Position numbers and translations under genes: made by a program. From a phage, in the NCBI GenBank assembly GCA_026180655.1, contig GCA_026180655.1_4341.1: 43,041 nt of DNA; one strand, written 5' to 3'. Within the stretch, counting starts at the first letter, position 1. Each line of letters starts with the position of its first letter. Below the pieces are notes generated by a model, which was given only the letters and a program-made list of their open reading frames with translations, was not told where the DNA came from and made no database searches. Positions 32,523 through 43,041 of this stretch are shown piece after piece.

Positions 32523-32795
32523 ATGATTTATCAACTCTACCGAGCCGTAGACAGGCGGGATAACACAGAGGCGCTATGGCTGTTACGTGCACCGTCCGGT
32601 GCGTATCAGATGGAAGAGATGGCGTACTTAGGAAAAGTACCACGGCCTAAAGATATAGGCCGTCATGTGTCGCAGATTAAGCGCACGACTTTTGCCAAAC
32701 CTGACTTTTATGTCTTCGAGTCGATGTATGGGTGGGCCATGCACTGCGACCATAAGACGCGACATTTAATTGACCAGTGGGAGAACAGGGTATGA
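32523..32795 (+). CDS. Hypothetical protein
   Basis: 90-aa ORF. Confidence 0.3.
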   Translation: MIYQLYRAVDRRDNTEALWLLRAPSGAYQMEEMAYLGKVPRPKDIGRHVSQIKRTTFAKPDFYVFESMYGWAMHCDHKTRHLIDQWENRV

Positions 32796-33286
32796 ATTGG
32801 CACGAACTGTTCGACTATGACCCGGATACAGGTAAGTTGTTTTGGAAGATAAGCCCTTCGGATAAGGTAAAGGTAGGCCAAGAGGCGGGGTCGAATGATG
32901 TTCACGGCTATAAACAGGTACAAGTGTTAGGTAAGGTCCATAAAGTGCACCGTGTTATATGGGAACTTTGTAATACTAATGATGTTTTAAGTAGCAGCGA
33001 CCAGATTGACCATATAGACCATGACAGAAGGGATAATCGCATATCTAATCTTCGTAAAGTTGACAGTCTAGGCAACCGGCGTAATTCTGGAATGTCGTCG
33101 CTAAATACGTCAGGTGTAACCGGAGTTTCATGGTGCCGTAGGCGCGGTAGATGGCGGGCAAGTATAAAAATAAACAAGGTATCGAAGCATTTAGGATACT
33201 TCGACAGCTTCGACGATGCGGTAAACGTTAGAAAGAAAGCAGAAGAGATTTACGGGTTCCACAAAAATCATGGGGTTAAAAGATGA
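32792..33286 (+). CDS. HNH homing endonuclease with AP2-like DNA-binding domain (copy 1)
   Basis: ATGA overlap with upstream gene; MNWHELFDYDPDTGKLFW, His/Asn-containing HNH core (HRVIW...DHIDHDRRDNRISNL), C-terminal AP2-like GVTGVSWCRRRGRWRASI; paralog at 41034. Confidence 0.6.
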   Translation: MNWHELFDYDPDTGKLFWKISPSDKVKVGQEAGSNDVHGYKQVQVLGKVHKVHRVIWELCNTNDVLSSSDQIDHIDHDRRDNRISNLRKVDSLGNRRNSGMSSLNTSGVTGVSWCRRRGRWRASIKINKVSKHLGYFDSFDDAVNVRKKAEEIYGFHKNHGVKR

Positions 33287-34566
33287 AATTAAAAGAACGC
33301 AGGGGCAATAACGATGTGCACGCGCTGTTGTCACCGTCCGGTGCTAAGAAATGGTTGGCGTGCAGTGCATCACTGGCATGTGAAAAAGATATTCCTAACA
33401 CATCCTGTAAATCCGCCGTTACAGGAACCGCATGTCACACTATAGCTGAGGTCCATCTAAACCAGTACATAAAAGGCACTGCGTTGCCATTAGAGCGTGA
33501 AGTTGGTGCTTACGTGCTGGATGATGGTAAAGGCCAGATTAAGGCGCTAATCAGCCCGATGAAAGGTGCGGTACTGATTACGGCTGACATGATTGAGCAG
33601 GTACGCAAGTACACCGATTACTGCAAAGCGATTATCGATGTAGCGACTTACGCTAAGCTAGAAATGCGCGTCAATCTTACCCAGGTGTTGCACCCAGGGT
33701 ACAAAGTACCTGTTGAGAGTGGGGAAGACGAGGAAGAAGACGAGGATGAATTAGAGACATTCGGAACCGCTGACCTCGTTGCCGTACAGGAACTGGCTAA
33801 CACAGACGAGCACATGCTCATTATCGGCGACCTGAAAACTGGGAGACATCGTGTTGAAGCGAAAGGAAACAAACAGCTTATGCTTTACGCTCTCGGTGTT
33901 TATCGTCGACTCAAGAGACGTTATAACATCACAGTTGTTCGTCTGGTAATCTTCCAGCCGTATGCCGGAGGCGCGTCGGAGTGGGACATCACGGTTGAAG
34001 GTCTGGAACTGTTCGCTAAGTTTGCACAGAAGCGTGCGCTGTTAGCCCTTGATGCGTACTTCCGCGGTAAGAAGAACCTGAAAGCGTCAGACTTCAGGCC
34101 TTCGGTAGATGGTTGTCAGTGGTGCCGGTTCTCAGAACAGTGCGCTGCACGTACAAAGACGGTTAACTCAGTACTGGCGGAAGAACTTGAGGACGACTTT
34201 GCACTGGAACTGACACCAGAGCAACTCGTAGCTGAATATGAGAAGTTGCCGTTGTTTCGCCAGCACATAGACAAGGTTGAAAAAGCGATGGCGGCTGCGC
34301 TGCATTCCGGTAAGAAAGTGCCGGGGTATAAACTGGTTGAAGGACGCCCGGGTAATCGTGCGTGGAGAGACGTGGAGAAAGTAGCAGAAATCTACGGCGA
34401 CAAGCTGACCAAAGAAGTGATCATGACCCCGACCGAAGCTGTTAAAGTGATACCGGAAGAAGAACTGAAAGACCTCATTACCCGCAAGCCTGGAGCGCCA
34501 TGTGTCGCGACGGCAGATGACAAACGGCCTGAGTGGAATCAAGTTAGTGAAGAAGATTTAGAATAA
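33283..34566 (+). CDS. PD-(D/E)XK exonuclease, DUF2800 / Cas4-like with Cys cluster
   Basis: N-terminus HALLSPSGAKKWLACSAS, nuclease motifs GTADL, IGDLKTG, QLMLYA, C-terminal CQWCRFSEQC. Confidence 0.65.
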   Translation: MKLKERRGNNDVHALLSPSGAKKWLACSASLACEKDIPNTSCKSAVTGTACHTIAEVHLNQYIKGTALPLEREVGAYVLDDGKGQIKALISPMKGAVLITADMIEQVRKYTDYCKAIIDVATYAKLEMRVNLTQVLHPGYKVPVESGEDEEEDEDELETFGTADLVAVQELANTDEHMLIIGDLKTGRHRVEAKGNKQLMLYALGVYRRLKRRYNITVVRLVIFQPYAGGASEWDITVEGLELFAKFAQKRALLALDAYFRGKKNLKASDFRPSVDGCQWCRFSEQCAARTKTVNSVLAEELEDDFALELTPEQLVAEYEKLPLFRQHIDKVEKAMAAALHSGKKVPGYKLVEGRPGNRAWRDVEKVAEIYGDKLTKEVIMTPTEAVKVIPEEELKDLITRKPGAPCVATADDKRPEWNQVSEEDLE

Positions 34567-34570
34567 AGTG

Positions 34571-34599
34571 TTGACACCTGAATAGTTAGCTATTATAGT
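34571..34599 (+). promoter_or_regulatory. Sigma70-type promoter, class B (TTGACA-N17-TATAGT) with operator palindrome
   Basis: TTGACA 34571-34576, TATAGT 34594-34599, perfect palindrome AATAG-TTAG-CTATT 34581-34594. Confidence 0.6.
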
Positions 34600-34667
34600 T
34601 CTAATCACTGGCCGGGCAGCTTCCCGGAGTAAACTTTGAAATATAAACTGAAAAGCGAGAAATCACG

Positions 34668-35297
34668 ATGGGTATTAAACTGAATCTGCGTAAAGTAAAC
34701 ACTGCATGGGTTAACGTATTCGAACGTGCTGCCGACTCTGAGGACAAGAAAACCGGTAAACTGATTAAGGGTAAATATCAGGTCACGGTTCTTATGCAAC
34801 CTGACCATCCTCAAATCGATGCGCTTTACGATACTGCGCTTGAAGTTGTAACAGAGGCAATCGGAACGGCTGCTGCCGAGAAATGGATGAAGGCCAACTA
34901 CGGGGTAGGCCACCATGCGGATAAATGCTGCGTCCGTGACCTGGCAATGCGTGACAATCCGATTGAGGATTTTGAAGAAGGTCTGTATTTCCGCGCTACT
35001 AACAACCGCCAACCGGTGATTATGACATCGGCTAAAGGTGAAAAACAAACCGAGCCTGATTTCAACATCGACGGGAAAGAAATCGAAGGAGAGCAGGTAT
35101 ATAGCGGATGTGTAGCAAACGTATCTGTAGAATTATGGTGGCACAAAGATTGGAAAAACCTGTGCGCTACCATCCTCGGTATCAAGTATATGGGTGAAGG
35201 TAAACGCTTCGGAGGCTCCAGTGTAGTAGCGAGCACCGATGACCTGGAAGACGATGAAGAAGATGAAGCACCGCGCCGCGAACGTCGCCGTCGTTAA
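34668..35297 (+). CDS. ssDNA-binding protein, DUF2815 / T7 gp2.5-like, putative
   Basis: 209 aa, acidic C-terminal tail DDLEDDEEDEA, position between Cas4-like nuclease and DNA polymerase. Confidence 0.45.
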   Translation: MGIKLNLRKVNTAWVNVFERAADSEDKKTGKLIKGKYQVTVLMQPDHPQIDALYDTALEVVTEAIGTAAAEKWMKANYGVGHHADKCCVRDLAMRDNPIEDFEEGLYFRATNNRQPVIMTSAKGEKQTEPDFNIDGKEIEGEQVYSGCVANVSVELWWHKDWKNLCATILGIKYMGEGKRFGGSSVVASTDDLEDDEEDEAPRRERRRR

Positions 35298-35316
35298 TAT
35301 CTGAATCAATTTAACT

Positions 35317-35341
35317 AAGGCCCTTCATTGGGCCTTTTTAC
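35317..35341 (+). terminator. Rho-independent terminator
   Basis: AGGCCC-TTCATT-GGGCCT hairpin followed by TTTTTA. Confidence 0.5.
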
Positions 35342-35507
35342 TAAGGGTCAAAATAATGATTTTCTGTAAGCACGTTTATCGCTATATGAAACCGCTTCCG
35401 TGGTATGCAGACGAGTACCGGGCCGGGTACAGGCATGTGTAGATTTGCCGTGATTGTATGAAAATAAGATTAAGCGAAACGAAGGCACTGGATTTAAGGA
35501 AAAAGAA

Positions 35508-37781
35508 ATGAGCTACTTATACCTTGACTTTGAAACATTCTCTGAGGCCGATTTAAATAAAGTCGGGTCCTACGCTTACGCCGAACACCCGACTACCGAA
35601 GTGCTTATCTGTACCTATGCTTTTGATGACGAGCCTGTGCAGGTGTGGGATTGCACCGACGGCAGCGACATGCCGGGCGATTTGCACCGAGCGCTACGCC
35701 GCCTGGTTAAGCCAAATAGCCGTATCAAGATGGTGTGGCACAATGGCTCAATGTTCGATAGGCTCATCATGAAGCACTGCTGGGGCTTTGACATCCCTGT
35801 AAGTAACACCATTGATACGATGATTTGGGCGTTTCGTCACGCGTTGCCGGGTTCACTCGAGGCATTGTGCGAAGTGTTGGGCGTGTCCGCGGACAATGCG
35901 AAAGACAAACGCGGCAAGGCGCTGATTAAGCGTTTCTCTAAACCTACGCCGAAGAACTACAAAATCCGCCGCTATACCTCCGAAACGCACCCGGATGAGT
36001 GGGCGCTGTTCATCAAATACGCTGTGAGCGACATCACTGCGATGCGAGAAGTATTCCATAAGCTGCCGCGGTGGGGTAACTCGGAGTTCGAGGACCGCGT
36101 ACTGGAACTGGACCAATTAATCAATGACCGAGGCTTCTTTGTTGATACGGCTCTTGCTGAGGCGGCGGTAGCAGCAGTTGAACGCCACAAGCAAGAGCTA
36201 AAAAACGAGGCCCGCGCGAAATTCGGGGGAAAACTAACCGGCAAAGATTTCCTGCCAATCCTTCGGGAACTGGCACCGGCCTACAATATTTATAATGCGC
36301 AGAAAGCAACGCTCGAAAGTTTGTTAGAGGACGACGACTTGCCCGACGATGCGCGTACAATCATTGAGATGCGCCTCGGCGCGGCCTCCACGGCGTCAAC
36401 AAAATATAAACCGCTCCTGCTAGGACGGTCCAAAGACGGACGACGTCGTGGCTGCATCCAGTATGGCGGCGCGAAGCGCACTTTACGATTTGCGGGTAAA
36501 GGGTTTCAGCCACAGAACCTGTCGCGCGGGTATTACCACGATGACCCGACTAACGAGGAAAAGAAACTTGTACGCCAGCCGTGGGAGTCCGACGAAGACT
36601 GGAACCGCAGGCTTAACCCGCTATCGTTTGGTATCAATTTGCTTTTAAAGGGTCGGGCGCATCGTCGTTTCGATGTATCTAAACTAACGGCCTCGACCGT
36701 CCGCAGTTGCATCATCCCGGAAAAAGGCAATAAGTTGCTCGTTGCCGACTACTCAAACGTGGAAGGACGTGGGTTAGCCTGGACGGCGGGGGAGACGTCA
36801 GCCCTTGAGACGTTCCGCGCGGGGGTTGATATCTATTGTGCCACAGCTGGTAAGATGTTTGGCATGGACCCCATAGAACTGAAAGCCACCCGTAAAGACC
36901 TACGACAGGTCGGGAAATGTTGCGAGCTTGGCCTCGGCTACGAGGGGGGCGTAGGGGCTTTTATGACTATGGCTAAAACTTACGGGCTGGACCTCTTTAA
37001 AATGACGGAGACAATGCGAGGGACCTTTCCCGACCACATATGGGCCGCCACTGCCCGAGGTTATGAATGGGCGCGGATTCAGGAGGCTAAGCGACCCCCA
37101 AAACCAGGTAAAAAGGACGAACGGGCCTCTTACGTGTTGCCTAAGGAAGTGTGGCGCACCTGCGATGCTATCAAGCGCATGTGGCGGGAAGCCCACCCAG
37201 AAACAGTGAAATTCTGGAACGACCTTAAGGATTCGGTGATCGCCGCAATCAGAAATCCGGGACGAGAGTTTTGGGCGGGGGCCAGAGTCCGCCTTAACGG
37301 CGACAGAGCTATTCGCATCTGGCGTACTAAAGAGAAAGACAGACAGGGTAACTTTGTGCCTGGTTGGTGGTTGTGCGTGGAGCTGCCGTCGGGGCGCATC
37401 ATGTCCTACCCTGGTATAGGCTTAAGCGTCACTAAAGAGACTGACGAGGATGGGCGCGTAACAACTAACGTTCGCATTAAGTACCAGGGCGAAAATCAGA
37501 CCACCCGCCAGTGGACAACTTTGTATACCCACGGCGGAAAATTGTGTGAAAACATCATCCAGGCATTGTGCCGTGATTTACTGGTTAACGGACTCCTGAC
37601 GGTGGAAGCGGCGGGCTACCCAATTGTACTTCATGTGCATGACGAATGTGTCGCCGAAACACCAGACACACCGGAGTACACGGTTAAAGAGATGGGCGAC
37701 CTGCTATGCTCATTACCTGAATGGGCTGAAGGATTCCCACTAACATGGGCCGGGGAAGAGGTGTACCGTTATGTTAAGTAA
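35508..37781 (+). CDS. DNA polymerase, family A, with 3'-5' exonuclease domain
   Basis: ATG 35508 after AAGGAAAAAG RBS; exo motifs DFETFS, WHNGSMFD, YAVSD; pol motif A DYSNVEGR, motif B RKDLRQVGKCCELGLGYEGG, motif C HVHDE. Confidence 0.85.
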   Translation: MSYLYLDFETFSEADLNKVGSYAYAEHPTTEVLICTYAFDDEPVQVWDCTDGSDMPGDLHRALRRLVKPNSRIKMVWHNGSMFDRLIMKHCWGFDIPVSNTIDTMIWAFRHALPGSLEALCEVLGVSADNAKDKRGKALIKRFSKPTPKNYKIRRYTSETHPDEWALFIKYAVSDITAMREVFHKLPRWGNSEFEDRVLELDQLINDRGFFVDTALAEAAVAAVERHKQELKNEARAKFGGKLTGKDFLPILRELAPAYNIYNAQKATLESLLEDDDLPDDARTIIEMRLGAASTASTKYKPLLLGRSKDGRRRGCIQYGGAKRTLRFAGKGFQPQNLSRGYYHDDPTNEEKKLVRQPWESDEDWNRRLNPLSFGINLLLKGRAHRRFDVSKLTASTVRSCIIPEKGNKLLVADYSNVEGRGLAWTAGETSALETFRAGVDIYCATAGKMFGMDPIELKATRKDLRQVGKCCELGLGYEGGVGAFMTMAKTYGLDLFKMTETMRGTFPDHIWAATARGYEWARIQEAKRPPKPGKKDERASYVLPKEVWRTCDAIKRMWREAHPETVKFWNDLKDSVIAAIRNPGREFWAGARVRLNGDRAIRIWRTKEKDRQGNFVPGWWLCVELPSGRIMSYPGIGLSVTKETDEDGRVTTNVRIKYQGENQTTRQWTTLYTHGGKLCENIIQALCRDLLVNGLLTVEAAGYPIVLHVHDECVAETPDTPEYTVKEMGDLLCSLPEWAEGFPLTWAGEEVYRYVK

Positions 37782-37905
37782 ACCGATTGTTACGGCACTG
37801 GCGGGATTCGCAACCGGTGTCTACTGTCACGGGGGACAGTACGGCATGATGGTCGCCGTATTGTGTATGTTAGTCGCAATTTATCTGTGGGTGCTGGAAT
37901 GAAAA
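37771..37905 (+). CDS. Small hydrophobic peptide (44 aa)
   Basis: ATG 37771 overlapping polymerase 3' end; two hydrophobic segments; below ORF-track cutoff. Confidence 0.2.
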
Positions 37906-37984
37906 TTTACTGGTTCTATGAAGAAGACTGCCGAATCTGTCCGCGCTGCGGAATTGAGCATACGAAACGTGAGGGGTGTGTATT

Positions 37985-38176
37985 ATGAAAGAAGAATGTT
38001 TCAGCAACACCAAAGCATTAGTAGATATGCCTGAGTGGGAGTTCATCACGGTAATGGGAGATGGGTTCTTTAGTGATGCCTGCGCGGGGTGCACGCATAA
38101 AGGCGTTTACTATTCAGAACACGACATCTATCAAGCGTACTTCCTGCGCAACCCGGATGCGGAGCCTTTGCTGTGA
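37985..38176 (+). CDS. Hypothetical protein
   Basis: 63-aa ORF, MKEECFSNTKALVDMPEWEF... Confidence 0.3.
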   Translation: MKEECFSNTKALVDMPEWEFITVMGDGFFSDACAGCTHKGVYYSEHDIYQAYFLRNPDAEPLL

Positions 38177-38457
38177 CCCCGGAAGGCAAGATTCAGAAAT
38201 ACGCAAAAGACCGATTCGAGGCCATTGGTGGCCTCGTTCGTAAACTTTCCTACGAAGGACGTTCCGGTGCTCCTGACCTGCTGGTAATTCTCCCCGGCGG
38301 CATCGTCTGGTTTGTCGAGGTGAAGAAAGACGAAAACACGAAGCCAGACCCACACCAGCTACGTGAGCATGAGCGTATGCGCAAACGTGGCGCGAATGTT
38401 TTTGTCGTCGGGTCGTTCAAACAGGTTGACGATCTAATAGCGAACTATTATAGTTAG
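38173..38457 (+). CDS. VRR-NUC domain nuclease
   Basis: GTG start overlapping upstream stop; GAPDLLVILPGGIVWFVEVKKDENTKPDPHQ matches the VRR-NUC PD-(D/E)XK core. Confidence 0.55.
   Translation: MTPEGKIQKYAKDRFEAIGGLVRKLSYEGRSGAPDLLVILPGGIVWFVEVKKDENTKPDPHQLREHERMRKRGANVFVVGSFKQVDDLIANYYS
38426..38454 (+). promoter_or_regulatory. Sigma70-type promoter, class B (TTGACG-N17-TATAGT) with operator palindrome
   Basis: TTGACG 38426-38431, TATAGT 38449-38454, palindrome AATAG-CGAA-CTATT 38436-38449; lies within 3' end of VRR-NUC gene. Confidence 0.5.
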
Positions 38458-38487
38458 TACTACACCAACAATATAAGGAATTGAGAG

Positions 38488-38679
38488 ATGAAACACGAAT
38501 ATAGCCGCAAACCAGCGCGTGACATTGTACCAGGGGACATGATTTTCAACGTTAGGACACGTCGTCCTGTTGCCGTTGACATGGTATTCGTCGAGTCGAA
38601 CGGTAAACTGGTTATCGAAGATGTAACAGGTAACGTTACGGCGTTCGGACGTAAAGAGTTAGTTCTGGTGGCAAAATGA
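38488..38679 (+). CDS. Hypothetical protein
   Basis: 63-aa ORF with GAGAG RBS, ATGA-coupled to the methyltransferase ORF. Confidence 0.3.
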   Translation: MKHEYSRKPARDIVPGDMIFNVRTRRPVAVDMVFVESNGKLVIEDVTGNVTAFGRKELVLVAK

Positions 38680-39620
38680 ACTATTACAACGAATGGGATA
38701 AAGGTGCAGCCGCATGGCTGCGTGAATTAATAAAACAGGGTCACATACCTTTTGGAGTTGTAGATGAAAGAAGCATTACCGAAATTAGACCAGAAGACCT
38801 TGACGGGTTCACCCAGTGTCATTTTTTCGCTGGTATCGGAGGCTGGCCTCTCGCGCTCAGACTTGCGGGAGTTTCGGAAGATACGCCTCTCTGGACGGGA
38901 AGCCCGCCTTGCCAACCGTTTAGCTCGGCAGGAAAGCAACTCGGACAGTTCGACCAGAGACACCTCGCGCCCGTATTCCTTGACCTCATCAGCGAGTGCG
39001 GCCCTCCAGTCCTCTTTGGGGAACAGGTTGCGCCAGCAATTGCAAAATCGTGGATGTGCGATTTACAAGCTCATCTGGAAGGAGAAGACTACGCCGTCGG
39101 GTTTGCCGTACTCCCAGCTTGTAGCATCGGCGCACCGCACAAACGTGACAGACTTTTCTTCGGCGCGTACAACCTGGCCGAGTCCTTGCGCGCAGAACGG
39201 GGCGGTGAACGGGTACACGGATTGGGAGAAGGTGATAAAACGCAAGGAAGCAGGACGGCAACAGAATCTACAGGACGTGGTGATTCTGGCGGCTTGGGCA
39301 ACACCGACAGCGAACGATTACAAAGGGAGCGGAGAGACAGTGATTCGCAAGGACGGGAAGGACAGGACATTCGACAGGTTGGACTACTCGACGGAGCAGG
39401 GGCTGAAAATAACACAACCAATCCGCATCACGGCTTCTGGTCAGATGCTGACTGGCTCGGATGCCGGGATGGGAAATTCAGGCCAGTTGAACCCGGCACA
39501 TTCCCGCTGGCTAATGGGATACCCGCAAGAGTGGGACGATTGCGCGGTTACGGCAATGCCATCGTCCCGCAAGTAGCCGCGGAATTTATAAAGGCGTTCA
39601 TGGGGGTGGTGAATGAGTAA
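38676..39620 (+). CDS. DNA (cytosine-5)-methyltransferase; conserved motifs split between two reading frames
   Basis: Frame of 38676: FFAGIGG (motif I), GSPPCQPFS (motif IV), GAPHKRDRLFFGAY (motif VIII), RGYGNAIVPQVAAEFIKAF (motif X); +1 frame (38764..39576) carries WATPTANDYKGSG and NPAHSRWLMGYPQEW. Confidence 0.6.
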   Translation: MNYYNEWDKGAAAWLRELIKQGHIPFGVVDERSITEIRPEDLDGFTQCHFFAGIGGWPLALRLAGVSEDTPLWTGSPPCQPFSSAGKQLGQFDQRHLAPVFLDLISECGPPVLFGEQVAPAIAKSWMCDLQAHLEGEDYAVGFAVLPACSIGAPHKRDRLFFGAYNLAESLRAERGGERVHGLGEGDKTQGSRTATESTGRGDSGGLGNTDSERLQRERRDSDSQGREGQDIRQVGLLDGAGAENNTTNPHHGFWSDADWLGCRDGKFRPVEPGTFPLANGIPARVGRLRGYGNAIVPQVAAEFIKAFMGVVNE

Positions 39621-41037
39621 GTTTCAAAGGCGCGAGTACCAGAAACTCATGACTTCGTTCATGTTGCAACATCATCGATGCAACATATGGGCAAGCATGG
39701 GTGCCGGGAAGACTGGCAGCGTACTGTGGACATTAAACCGACTGTTCCGCAACGGCCAACTTACGGACGACGACCGGGTATTAATCCTCGCCCCGTTGCG
39801 CGTTGCGTCTGGTACGTGGCCAGCAGAACAAGAGAAATGGCAATTCCCATGCCTGAGTGTTGTGGACGCGACGGGTTCGGAGAAACGCCGTATTGCGGCG
39901 CTGGAGTCGGACGCTAACGTTGTGTGCACTAACTACGAGGTAATCGAGTGGCTGATTGACTACTACGGCAAAGACGACTGGCCTTTTACCGTTATTGTTG
40001 CCGATGAAAGCACGAAGCTGAAATCATTCCGCAGCCGTTCGGGCGGCAGTAAGAGGGCGAAGGCGCTTAGCAAAGTGGCGTTAGGTAAGGTAAAGCGTTT
40101 TATAAACCTGACAGGTACTCCATCCCCTAACGGACTCAAAGACCTGTGGGGTCAGAACTGGTTTATTGATGCGGGCGAGCGCCTCGGTTCTTCATATACG
40201 GCGTTCACTGACCGCTGGTTTAACTCGGTACAGAAAGGCAAATCCGCGATGGTGCGTGAGTACCATGCACGCCCGGGCGCAGATACTGAGATTCATCAGA
40301 AGATGAAAGACATTAGTCTCACGATTGACGCCGCCGAGTGGTTCGGTTGTGAAGCGCCGATTATTGTACCGGTTGAAATCGACCTGCCGAAGAAAGCTCG
40401 TCAGGCGTACATCGATATGGAGGAGAAGTTATTCGCCGAACTGGAGAGCGGAGAAGTTGAGGCGGCTAACGCGGCAGCGAAGACGTCGAAGTGTTTGCAG
40501 ATTGCATCCGGTGCTGTATATGTGTCAGGGCCAGACGGCGAAGCAACGAAAGACTGGGAGAAAGTGCACGACACGAAACTGGACGCGCTGGAGTCCATTG
40601 TTGAGGAGTTACAGGGTGCGCCGTTACTGGTCGCCTATCAGTTCAAGCACGAACTGGAACGCATACTGAAACGTTTCCCGCAGGCACAGGCGTTTGCCAA
40701 AGGCGCTAAGGGTAATAAGCAGATGGAAGCGTGGAACCGTGGTGAAATCGAGATTTTGTGCGTCCACCCCGCGTCAGCCGGTCATGGTTTGAATTTACAG
40801 GACGGCGGACACCATCTGGCGTTCATCTCGCAAGGCTGGAACCTTGAGCACTATTTGCAGGTTGTTGAGCGTATAGGTCCAACGCGTCAAAAGCAATCGG
40901 GGTATAATCGCCCTGTTTTTATCTACAAGATTATTGCTAAAGATACGTTAGATGAGGTAGTTGCTGCTCGTACCGACGAGAAAAAGCAAGTACAAGACAT
41001 ATTACTAGAGTACATGAAGCGCAGAGGTAAAAAATGA
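39613..41037 (+). CDS. SNF2-family helicase
   Basis: Walker A GAGKTG, DExx box ADESTKLK, LTGTP motif, C-terminal helicase motifs (HPASAGHGLNLQ). Confidence 0.7.
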   Translation: MSKFQRREYQKLMTSFMLQHHRCNIWASMGAGKTGSVLWTLNRLFRNGQLTDDDRVLILAPLRVASGTWPAEQEKWQFPCLSVVDATGSEKRRIAALESDANVVCTNYEVIEWLIDYYGKDDWPFTVIVADESTKLKSFRSRSGGSKRAKALSKVALGKVKRFINLTGTPSPNGLKDLWGQNWFIDAGERLGSSYTAFTDRWFNSVQKGKSAMVREYHARPGADTEIHQKMKDISLTIDAAEWFGCEAPIIVPVEIDLPKKARQAYIDMEEKLFAELESGEVEAANAAAKTSKCLQIASGAVYVSGPDGEATKDWEKVHDTKLDALESIVEELQGAPLLVAYQFKHELERILKRFPQAQAFAKGAKGNKQMEAWNRGEIEILCVHPASAGHGLNLQDGGHHLAFISQGWNLEHYLQVVERIGPTRQKQSGYNRPVFIYKIIAKDTLDEVVAARTDEKKQVQDILLEYMKRRGKK

Positions 41038-41531
41038 CCTATTGGAATGAGCTTTTTAATTATGACCCCAATACCGGAGTACTATCGTGGAAAAAGTGGC
41101 GTAGGGGTGCAAAAAGAAGTTTAGTAGCGGGTACAAAGGAACGTGATGGGTACGTGCGCGTAAAACATAAAAACAAGCATATCCCTGTTCACAGAATAAT
41201 TTGGGACATGTGCCACCCTAATGACGTTCTGACACCTGGATTTGAGATAGACCATATAAATCACATACGGGATGACAATAGAATACTAAACTTGAGAAAA
41301 GTAGTTAAGATTGATAACAACCGCAACACGACAAGAAACAAGGCTAATACTTCTGGGGTTGTAGGCGTACATTTTAACCGTTCCAGGGGTAAATGGGTCG
41401 CCGTTATCTACGACAATCGTAAGCTAGTTTTCTTGGGGCACTTCTCTGATTTCAAAGACGCTGTTGCCGTCAGGAAAGCAGCGGAAATAAAATATAATTA
41501 CCACGAAAACCACGGATCAGAAAAACCATGA
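41034..41531 (+). CDS. HNH homing endonuclease with AP2-like domain (copy 2)
   Basis: ATGA overlap with SNF2 gene; MTYWNELFNYDPNTGVLSW, HRIIW...DHINHIRDDNRILNL, AP2-like GVVGVHFNRSRGKWVAVI; paralog of 32792..33286. Confidence 0.6.
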   Translation: MTYWNELFNYDPNTGVLSWKKWRRGAKRSLVAGTKERDGYVRVKHKNKHIPVHRIIWDMCHPNDVLTPGFEIDHINHIRDDNRILNLRKVVKIDNNRNTTRNKANTSGVVGVHFNRSRGKWVAVIYDNRKLVFLGHFSDFKDAVAVRKAAEIKYNYHENHGSEKP

Positions 41532-41665
41532 ACATCATAGCCCCGATCCCGGCATTGCAAAAACGTATCAAGGAACTTGAGGAGGAGGTCTTGCGACTAC
41601 GCCAGCAAAGAGACGCCGCTAATGCGCAACTGGCGTTTGTACTGGAGAAGTTATCAGAAGAGTAG
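41528..41665 (+). CDS. Small coiled-coil protein (45 aa)
   Basis: ATG 41528 overlapping upstream stop; KRIKELEEEVLRLRQQRDAANAQL; below ORF-track cutoff. Confidence 0.25.
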   Translation: MNIIAPIPALQKRIKELEEEVLRLRQQRDAANAQLAFVLEKLSEE

Positions 41666-41668
41666 AGA

Positions 41669-41696
41669 AAAGGCCCCGTTTGGGGCCTTAGTTTTA
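41669..41696. terminator. Bidirectional rho-independent terminator between convergent operons
   Basis: AGGCCCC-GTTT-GGGGCCT hairpin with flanking A- and T-runs. Confidence 0.6.
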
Positions 41697-43041
41697 GCTA
41701 GGAATGGCGTTAAACCCGCTATCAGCTATCTGGTATGTGATACTGCCGGTTATCGAACTCGTATCAGTTAAGTCTGTGTTAGTAGCGATAACCGTAGCTG
41801 TTGCTGCCATTCTGCGCAATGGAATAGAGTTGTCAGCAGCTACTACTGAACCAAGTACAAAGGGGCCGTTAACCATACCCGACCAAGACGTAAGAATGCC
41901 GCCAGTTAACGCTGGAATGTTTTTAGGCAGGTTACCGATTGTTACGTTGCCAGTAAGCGCCCCTTTACTCGATAGTGACAGTGTGAAGTTAACCGTAATC
42001 GTGTTGCCATTCTTCGACCATGTACCGGAGCGCGCGGCATATGTAATACCAACGGTACTACCGCCGATTAACAGCATCGGGTTGAACGCCTGGCGTTCAT
42101 ATTCGTACTCCACCACCGGAGTGTCAGCAGTGACGCCAGCGGTAAGAATGGCACGGTTGCCGCCGTTCAGCCACACGACAACTTTACTTGTCGAACCAGG
42201 CGCAATGTGGATGACAGGTATATTCCGTGCAGCGCGAACCTGAGCGGATTTAATCTCTACAAGACTGCCGTTTCCGTATACGTATAAATCCGGGTTGGTG
42301 TACGCCACGCCGTTGTTCGTGAACAGACGGTCAATGATGATGTTGTTATTATCGCCTACCGTAATAAGCGGGCCTGTATACGACTCGCCGCCATTAGCAC
42401 TGCCTGGAGATAAAGGGCTAATCTGAAAGTTATTAAGCGTGATTTTGTTACCAGAATCGAAGGTGATAGCACCGCCTTCGTTCGCGCCGAGGTTAAGGAA
42501 GTATCCAGGACCTTCGGTTGCGCAACTGTTAAGCGTCAGCGCCACACAATTCTTGAAGTAGAACGCACCACGGCGCGGGCGGTCTGAGCAGCAGCTATCG
42601 AAAACCGAATAATTAAGATTTTCTATATGGAACGCACCAAGTACATCAGTATGTCCGCGCGCCCATACGTTATCGTAATGTGTGCTGGTGCCATTTGACT
42701 GCTGAACGGCACCAGAGAAATGACATCGAATCAAGTTTGATAGGTAGACATCGCCAAGTCGCACCCCAAATTTGGTATTAAACACCTGGACGTTTTCAAA
42801 AATGAAACCTCCACCAGTAAGAACCTCTATTCCTACCTCATTTTGTGTTGGACTTGTCCCCTTAAACGCCGCGTCGCGGATGACAACCGCTCTGCCGAAA
42901 ATCTCGTTCGTACCGATAGTTCCTAGCGAATCGGTATTCACGTAAGCAATCGCGTCTGTGGTTACGGTTTGCACGGGATTGTTAGGGTTGGTGATGGTTA
43001 CCTGTGCGTTATTACTCTTAGAGAAATACCCACGGCCCAGC
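41694..43041 (-). CDS. Tailspike/tail fibre protein, beta-helix-like C-terminal part (5' end beyond window)
   Basis: Minus-strand frame open from window end (no stop upstream of the GTG used by the ORF track); repetitive Gly/Asn/Thr/Val-rich beta-strand-like sequence typical of tailspikes; convergent on replication operon. Confidence 0.5.
   Translation of the reverse strand, partial: LGRGYFSKSNNAQVTITNPNNPVQTVTTDAIAYVNTDSLGTIGTNEIFGRAVVIRDAAFKGTSPTQNEVGIEVLTGGGFIFENVQVFNTKFGVRLGDVYLSNLIRCHFSGAVQQSNGTSTHYDNVWARGHTDVLGAFHIENLNYSVFDSCCSDRPRRGAFYFKNCVALTLNSCATEGPGYFLNLGANEGGAITFDSGNKITLNNFQISPLSPGSANGGESYTGPLITVGDNNNIIIDRLFTNNGVAYTNPDLYVYGNGSLVEIKSAQVRAARNIPVIHIAPGSTSKVVVWLNGGNRAILTAGVTADTPVVEYEYERQAFNPMLLIGGSTVGITYAARSGTWSKNGNTITVNFTLSLSSKGALTGNVTIGNLPKNIPALTGGILTSWSGMVNGPFVLGSVVAADNSIPLRRMAATATVIATNTDLTDTSSITGSITYQIADSGFNAIPS

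Follow-up and report, generated by a model that had tools for sequence, protein, structure and literature searches.

The 43,041-nucleotide (nt) stretch of phage DNA analysed here (contig GCA_026180655.1_4341.1; hereafter the window), which belongs to a Kagunavirus-like coliphage (Guernseyvirinae), carries two HNH endonuclease genes at gene junctions in its replication operon, and this raises the question of whether they are selfish elements that spread into these junctions or genes that came, or are kept, for other reasons. We find that the two genes, HNH1 at site 1 (32792..33286, + strand; 164 amino acids (aa)) and HNH2 at site 2 (41034..41531, + strand; 165 aa), are very probably intact, free-standing homing endonuclease genes with HNH_3 and AP2 parts, acquired independently and lodged as exact cassettes at two junctions of the operon. 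The observations on which this reading draws are the architecture and catalytic residues of the proteins, exact borders between presence and absence, alternative and decayed alleles, low G+C content (GC), flank linkage and islands of identity. An initial annotation, made from the DNA letters and their translations, had proposed two paralogous HNH-AP2 homing endonuclease genes in the same place. Both open reading frames (ORFs) lie where it put them and share the architecture it described, their products being 48% identical across 162 residues (expect value (E) 6e-48), and the motifs that it quoted are present in the translations: the N-termini, HRVIW/HRIIW, DHIDH/DHINH and GVTGVSW/GVVGVHF.

Both proteins score above the Pfam HNH_3 cut-off of 24.8 bits (HNH1, 33.6 bits; HNH2, 34.8 bits) and match phrog_99 ('HNH endonuclease') with E of 1.9e-64 and 1.7e-58, respectively, and Pfam AP2 (PF00847) matches them at 21.5 bits (HNH1; E 3e-4) and 18.7 bits (HNH2; E 2e-3). 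As a single-sequence search of HNH1 against solved structures returned only noise, a family profile was needed, and this was built from an alignment of 61 members gathered with HNH2 as the query. The profile matched the HNH homing endonuclease I-HmuI of Bacillus phage SPO1 (PDB 1U3E) over residues 30–103 (E 2.7e-8) and the plant AP2 domains of WRI1 (7WQ5; E 1.2e-5) and TEM1 (7ET4; E 5e-4) over residues 106–155. An AlphaFold (AF2) model of HNH2, with a mean predicted local distance difference test score (pLDDT) of 90, has a predicted beta-beta-alpha metal finger as its nuclease core (strands 70–74 and 87–91, then helix 92–97), followed by a predicted AP2 part made of strands 112–115, 120–127 and 130–137 and helix 140–153. 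When this model was searched with Foldseek, 1U3E was returned first (probability 1.00), followed by the AP2 domains of TEM1, WRI1 and AtERF1 (template modelling (TM) score 0.68 on the target). Residues D73, H74, N82, N95 and N98 (HNH2 numbering) are invariant across the 61 homologues, and D73-H74, N82 and N95 align with I-HmuI D74-H75, N83 and N96 (I-HmuI numbers counted from the profile alignment), which we take from the I-HmuI literature to be, respectively, the catalytic Asp-His, a structural Asn and a metal-binding Asn. HNH1 carries the same residues at these positions, in IDHIDHDRRDNRISNLRKVDSLGNRRN. By profile and, for HNH2, by predicted fold, the architecture thus runs from a beta region at the N-terminus through a His-Me finger of the I-HmuI type to an AP2 domain at the C-terminus, in agreement with the HNH core and AP2-like C-terminus of the initial annotation, and both would be expected to act as nucleases.

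AP2 domains are best known from transcription factors, and one is recognisable in the HNH1/HNH2 family, which invites the alternative that these proteins are DNA-binding regulators in which the AP2 domain regulates transcription or replication and the HNH part is inactive. One member of the family goes some way towards this: a third HNH-AP2 allele found at site 1, allele C (locus L020, 121–618; locus L025, 1698–2195), shares its first 23 residues with HNH1 and, in L020 and in phage EcoPhCCP1, has apparently lost conserved nuclease residues, RH replacing DH and the Asn aligned to I-HmuI N96 being absent, so that allele C may be catalytically inactive. HNH1 and HNH2 themselves have D-H, N and N at the positions that align with the I-HmuI active site and do not vary in the 61-sequence family, and we consider a purely regulatory role for them extremely improbable.

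Each of the two genes is a separate ORF outside any intron or intein and is bounded at both ends by ATGA overlaps with its neighbours. At site 1, the stop of a 90-aa ORF (phrog_4965; 32523..32795, + strand) overlaps the HNH1 start in the ATGA at 32792–32795, and the HNH1 stop overlaps, in the ATGA at 33283–33286, the start of a DUF2800 gene for a Cas4-like PD-(D/E)XK nuclease (33283..34566, + strand; Pfam DUF2800, E 1e-64, and PDDEXK_1). At site 2, the stop of a gene for an SNF2-family helicase (39613..41037, + strand; Pfam SNF2-rel_dom; phrog_62, E 7e-168) overlaps the HNH2 start in the ATGA at 41034–41037, and a 45-aa ORF (phrog_5915; 41528..41665, + strand) begins in the ATGA at 41528–41531 that holds the HNH2 stop. 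The neighbours and the overlaps with the preceding genes are as first annotated, the overlaps with the following genes are an addition to that description, and translation is presumably coupled through the ATGA at both ends of each gene. The genes between HNH1 and HNH2 form the replication/recombination module, which encodes the DUF2800/PD-(D/E)XK nuclease, a DUF2815-like single-stranded DNA-binding protein, a family A DNA polymerase, a VRR-NUC nuclease, a C5 methylase and the SNF2 helicase.

Comparison with relatives that lack the insertions revealed exact empty sites, in which one ATGA joins the flanking genes, at both junctions. In phage K1H, the 90-aa ORF meets the DUF2800 gene by one ATGA, and alignment of the window with K1H gives the extra DNA as precisely the HNH1 ORF through its own ATGA; in phage ULINTec2, the helicase gene meets the 45-aa ORF by one ATGA in the same manner. 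Site 1 is empty in 9 of the 17 loci of the panel assembled for it (K1H included) and site 2 in 5 of the 19 loci of its own panel, and in two isolated relatives, Bas70 (BASEL) and UTI-CM001, both sites are empty. Because empty-site alleles are common (K1H, ULINTec2 and others) and the catalytic D-H, N and N are conserved in HNH1 and HNH2 alike, the interpretation first given to these genes, as free-standing homing endonucleases at gene junctions, is supported at the sequence level, and the decayed copies and the linked flank described below add to that support.

In calling the genes paralogous, the initial annotation was right that they belong to the same family, at 48% identity, but each is more similar to genes of other phages than to its partner: for HNH1 the identity reaches 96% (aa) in two records of the Kagunavirus BCH953P1, where the gene lies at the same site, and 54% in another lineage, and HNH2 has relatives at 57–58%. 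Between HNH1 and HNH2 no similarity was found at the DNA level, and no third HNH copy was found in the window. A recent duplication within the genome was ruled out by the lack of DNA-level similarity together with the closer relatives of each gene elsewhere, and the comparison supports HNH1 and HNH2 as family members that were acquired independently. Among 50,697 phage records, no HNH2 relative above 58% aa identity was found; the exact HNH2 protein is encoded on seven metagenome contigs, at the same junction every time. In the HNH2-bearing contigs, site 1 is empty (L018), holds an intact, different allele (allele C; L020), or holds allele C with an in-frame stop (L019 and L021), and the state of site 1 and the presence of HNH2 therefore assort independently among contigs. 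Both genes are also low in GC (HNH1, 43%; HNH2, 42%; window, 51%) and, together with their patchy distribution, this points to recent horizontal arrival.

The strongest evidence for homing, as far as sequence comparison can provide it, is the linkage of HNH genes at site 2 to the 3' end of the helicase gene. When the last 177 nt of this gene (40861..41037, + strand) were clustered across the 19-locus panel, all six HNH2-bearing loci fell into one haplotype, tail B (96–100% alike), while 11 HNH-less loci, in which the site is empty or holds a Toprim-like ORF or a small ORF (a 61-aa ORF, or a 249-nt gap in K1H), fell into another, tail A (88–99% alike). The two tails are 68–73% identical and differ by 10 amino acids. 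In ST20, the twelfth of the HNH-less loci, the tail is of a third type, ~71–76% identical to every other, and ORH_001, with a different HNH gene at site 2, has a B-like tail. The divergence is local: set against HNH-less phages, the helicase gene is ~30% diverged in its last ~170 nt and ~8% diverged elsewhere. The same linkage was seen in the database, where 8 of 379 records with this helicase tail are at least 80% identical to tail B, and in seven of these eight, including Salmonella phage Jersey of another genus, an HNH gene follows the helicase directly. The eighth record, fBC-Eco01, has an empty site 2 (L033 1001–1310) and may represent a lineage from which the nuclease gene has gone while a resistant flank stayed behind. 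Since a nuclease with its target in tail A predicts the asymmetry between tails A and B and a neutral slot does not, tail B is a putative co-conversion tract and a putative cleavage-immune version of the target.

The variety of genes found at the two junctions bears on whether HNH1 and HNH2 could instead be passive cargo, that is, occupants of slots that are swapped by ordinary homologous recombination in the conserved flanks, with no ability to spread themselves. In the best 60 database records for site 2, with the state classed by match span, the site is empty in 19, holds an ORF of ~61 aa in 17, a Toprim-like ORF of ~171 aa in 18 and a different HNH gene in four, and HNH2 in none; most database Kagunavirus sites are thus empty or filled by something else, and all of the occupants are inserted ATGA to ATGA, as passive exchange would allow. 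The Toprim-like protein of phage Golestan (L006 1035–1550) and its relatives falls just under the cut-off for Pfam Toprim_2 and matches phrog_849 ('DNA primase'; E 1e-48), and its gene has the same ATGA-to-ATGA insertion and is linked to tail A. Passive exchange would also suit the wide differences in length at and around site 1, and the position of HNH2 inside a block of ~3 kb that is shared among phages and includes the whole tailspike gene, the tailspike being a module known for exchange under host-range selection. The helicase tails tell against it: phages with an empty site, the Toprim-like ORF or the 61-aa ORF mostly share tail A, the 30%-diverged tail B is confined to HNH-bearing phages in the panel, and the link between B-like tails and HNH genes in the database extends even to another genus. 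The catalytic residues of HNH1 and HNH2 are, in addition, intact, and we judge passive cargo to be unlikely.

The shared block itself begins at a recombination breakpoint in the window 170–200 bp upstream of HNH2 (40833/40864). In comparison with the HNH2-bearing contigs, the helicase gene of the window has mismatches about every 9 nt up to 40833 and one more at 40864, and from past 40864 through HNH2 and the 45-aa ORF there are zero. The ~3-kb block takes in HNH2 and the 45-aa ORF together with the helicase tail on one side and the whole tailspike gene on the other, and reaches through the latter to about position 750. Four long contigs share it at 97–100% (mostly 99–100%) identity, and elsewhere their replication genes are just 65–95% identical to those of the window. 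For the receptor-binding part of the tailspike (41700–43041) the best database match was Hafnia phage yong1, at 80.5%, and no close relative of the window tailspike was found in the isolate collection. The position of HNH2 suggests a further idea, that its cleavage drives long co-conversion tracts which carry the adjacent tailspike gene, forming a small homing endonuclease gene (HEG) island with receptor-binding cargo; we regard this as rather unlikely, but if true it would make HNH2 a motor of host-range module exchange among Guernseyvirinae. A different 'HEG island', extending from HNH1 to HNH2, found no support, as 33300–40800 is just 65–95% identical to contigs that carry HNH2 and an HNH gene at site 1.

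At site 1, the HNH1 gene and the beginning of the next gene also appear to have travelled together. The window and BCH953P1 share an island of identity (32850..33350, + strand; 98.8% identity, 6 mismatches in ~500 nt) that covers most of HNH1 and the first 70–100 nt of the DUF2800 gene, while the flanks on either side have 5–8 mismatches per 50 nt and the genome-wide median identity, in 250-nt windows, is 89.6%. The N-terminus encoded by this stretch of the DUF2800 gene, MKLKERRG, is restricted in the 17-locus panel to HNH1-bearing phages, with the private changes K2 and R7; the other 14 panel loci have MILKERGG or MVLKERGG, with the exception of fBC-Eco01, which has MKIKGRSG. As judged from these comparisons, the HNH1 target most likely straddles the point at which the 90-aa ORF joins the DUF2800 gene. 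Beside both insertion sites nucleotide diversity is raised, over ~240 nt at the start of the DUF2800 gene and ~165 nt at the end of the helicase gene, which as a signal is suggestive only.

Site 1 is where decayed copies were found. In addition to the in-frame stops of the two metagenome contigs described above, fBC-Eco01 has a frameshifted HNH1-like gene whose AP2 part carries on in another frame (L003 993–1500); no decayed copy of HNH2 was seen. Empty, intact and broken states at one site are expected from the cycle of invasion, decay and loss that selfish nuclease genes undergo, and fBC-Eco01 appears to be in the loss phase of such a cycle at both sites. Site 1 or a slot adjacent to it holds other HNH-AP2 alleles, with 44–54% identity to HNH1, in EcoPhCCP1, GZMU_E2010, Jerseyviruses and metagenome contigs. 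The gene of GZMU_E2010 replaces the 90-aa ORF (L024 1501–1995), and in phage Ivi an HNH-AP2 gene follows the DUF2800 nuclease gene (L023 2501–2992).

That intact and broken copies coexist is also relevant to the proposal that HNH1 and HNH2 are domesticated nucleases, kept by selection on the phage for degrading host or competitor DNA or for helping replication or recombination. Their location would suit such a service, both genes lying within the replication/recombination operon and being apparently coupled translationally to essential genes, and HNH genes are frequent at several junctions in Guernseyvirinae. The arrangement of HNH1 and HNH2 was moreover seen in an independent sample, since a metagenome contig from run SRR14739106 (L035), which over 20 kb matches the window at 99.5% identity, carries both ORFs intact; the differences between this contig and the window are mostly concentrated in 41700–43041. 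Yet most relatives lack HNH1 and HNH2 and are viable isolates, pseudogenised copies persist at site 1, and the low GC and patchy distribution speak for recent horizontal arrival. Domestication is in our assessment decidedly unlikely.

We propose that the two genes spread by homing, as follows. Co-infection by an HNH-bearing phage and an HNH-less relative would set the stage, and the AP2 domain, with the N-terminal beta region, would bind a specific sequence beside the insertion point in the HNH-less allele. The I-HmuI-like His-Me finger would then nick or cut the bound DNA, the HNH-bearing genome would serve as the template for recombinational repair, and the nuclease gene would be copied, with some of its flank, into the HNH-less genome. 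The most likely place for the HNH2 target is the final ~170 nt of the helicase gene, and tail B, which moves together with HNH2, would be the version that cannot be cleaved.

Several observations weigh against this proposal or limit how far it can be taken. Because unrelated genes (the 171-aa Toprim-like ORF, the 61-aa ORF and genes annotated as NinX) also occupy the site 1 and site 2 junctions in other phages, the junctions are hot spots for variable genes in general, and polymorphism by itself is no proof of nuclease-driven mobility. The breakpoint near HNH2 amounts to effectively one recombination event because the HNH2-bearing contigs share one helicase allele, and the identical block extends more than 2.5 kb rightward through the tailspike gene, such that ordinary module exchange could have brought HNH2. 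At site 1, flank linkage is based on just two independent HNH1-bearing genomes, and nucleotide diversity peaks at the far ends of the DUF2800 and helicase genes as well. The AP2 matches are below the Pfam gathering score of 33.3 bits in both proteins. Finally, we infer enzymatic activity, a nick or a double-strand cut, the target positions and present-day homing from sequence comparison. The initial annotation is therefore adjusted in three respects: the two genes were acquired independently and not by duplication, non-nuclease genes occupy the junctions elsewhere, and cleavage and homing are put forward as probable on comparative grounds.

Among systems that have been characterised, I-HmuI is the closest solved structure to HNH1 and HNH2 by profile and by predicted fold. 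It shares with them an HNH_3-type His-Me finger, the aligned D-H, N and N, and an N-terminal beta-sheet region before the core. The gene for I-HmuI lies within a group I intron, and the enzyme nicks a single strand and has C-terminal helical DNA-binding modules, whereas HNH1 and HNH2 are free-standing and end in an AP2 domain; sequence identity is ~18%. In being free-standing between conserved genes, HNH1 and HNH2 resemble the T4-type Seg and Mob endonucleases (e.g. SegG and MobE), which cleave the neighbouring conserved gene of a nuclease-less phage and co-convert flanking markers, with the carrier made immune by sequence polymorphism. The linkage to the helicase tail at site 2 fits that pattern. 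Seg enzymes are GIY-YIG proteins, Mob enzymes are HNH proteins without AP2, and the T4 genes are usually placed in intergenic DNA and have expression signals of their own; HNH1 and HNH2, unlike these, are exact ATGA-to-ATGA inserts inside an operon and have an AP2 module. We also considered the terminase-associated class of HNH proteins (HK97 gp74-type), and set it aside for HNH1 and HNH2, which are in the replication module, have AP2 and are dispensable in relatives.

The combination of HNH and AP2 is a recognised homing endonuclease architecture, found in phages beside essential genes and at the boundaries of exchanged DNA (PMC10448857, which cites Magnani et al. 2004 for the HNH-AP2 family), and HNH1 and HNH2 fit this pattern. 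The 'IPA-HNH' genes of vibriophage ICP1 (Barth, Dunham and Seed 2023, PMC10448857) have the same N-terminal HNH and C-terminal AP2; they are described as too divergent for Pfam HNH-3, whereas HNH1 and HNH2 pass HNH_3. A literature search found no dedicated study of HNH-AP2 elements in Guernseyvirinae, only mentions at the level of annotation. Genes annotated as HNH in Jerseyvirus and Kagunavirus (Jersey_35, UPWr_S2-4 gp63, and those of fEg-Eco19 and ORH_001) belong to the same family and share the two junctions and the ATGA design with HNH1 and HNH2, but are different alleles, with 45–57% aa identity to them. Some Jerseyvirus-like helicases are annotated with inteins.

HNH-AP2 genes are common and already annotated in this phage subfamily; HNH1 and HNH2 by themselves are routine, and what is new here is a new allele of a known type of element. 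Beyond this, the comparative data predict concrete target regions: for HNH2 this is tail A, and for HNH1 it is the place where the 90-aa ORF meets the DUF2800 gene. The position of HNH2 beside the tailspike gene bears on whether selfish nucleases help to move host-range genes between phages, a matter of importance both to phage evolution and to how stable engineered or therapeutic Kagunavirus phages are.

Some minor observations concern the window as a whole. Its part from 31600 to 43041 matches 516 phage records, the top ones being Escherichia phages of the genus Kagunavirus, at ~84–90% identity over 63–71% of the query. The tailspike gene (41694–43041 continued at 1–~530, - strand) spans the window ends, and the window is for this reason a permuted, nearly closed genome; relative to contig L018, the join of its ends is short by ~43 nt. 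Within the module, two long ORFs on the + strand, at 38676–39620 and 38764–39576, overlap by ~810 nt in different frames. One of the pair, of 314 aa, matches the Pfam C5 methylase and phrog_363, and the other, of 270 aa, has no Pfam match and matches phrog_1008 ('DNA methyltransferase') with E of 6e-57. The pair may be genuine genes that overlap, a methylase with a frameshift or an artefact of annotation; both ORFs are annotated in K1H, and gene callers applied to metagenomes choose either one.

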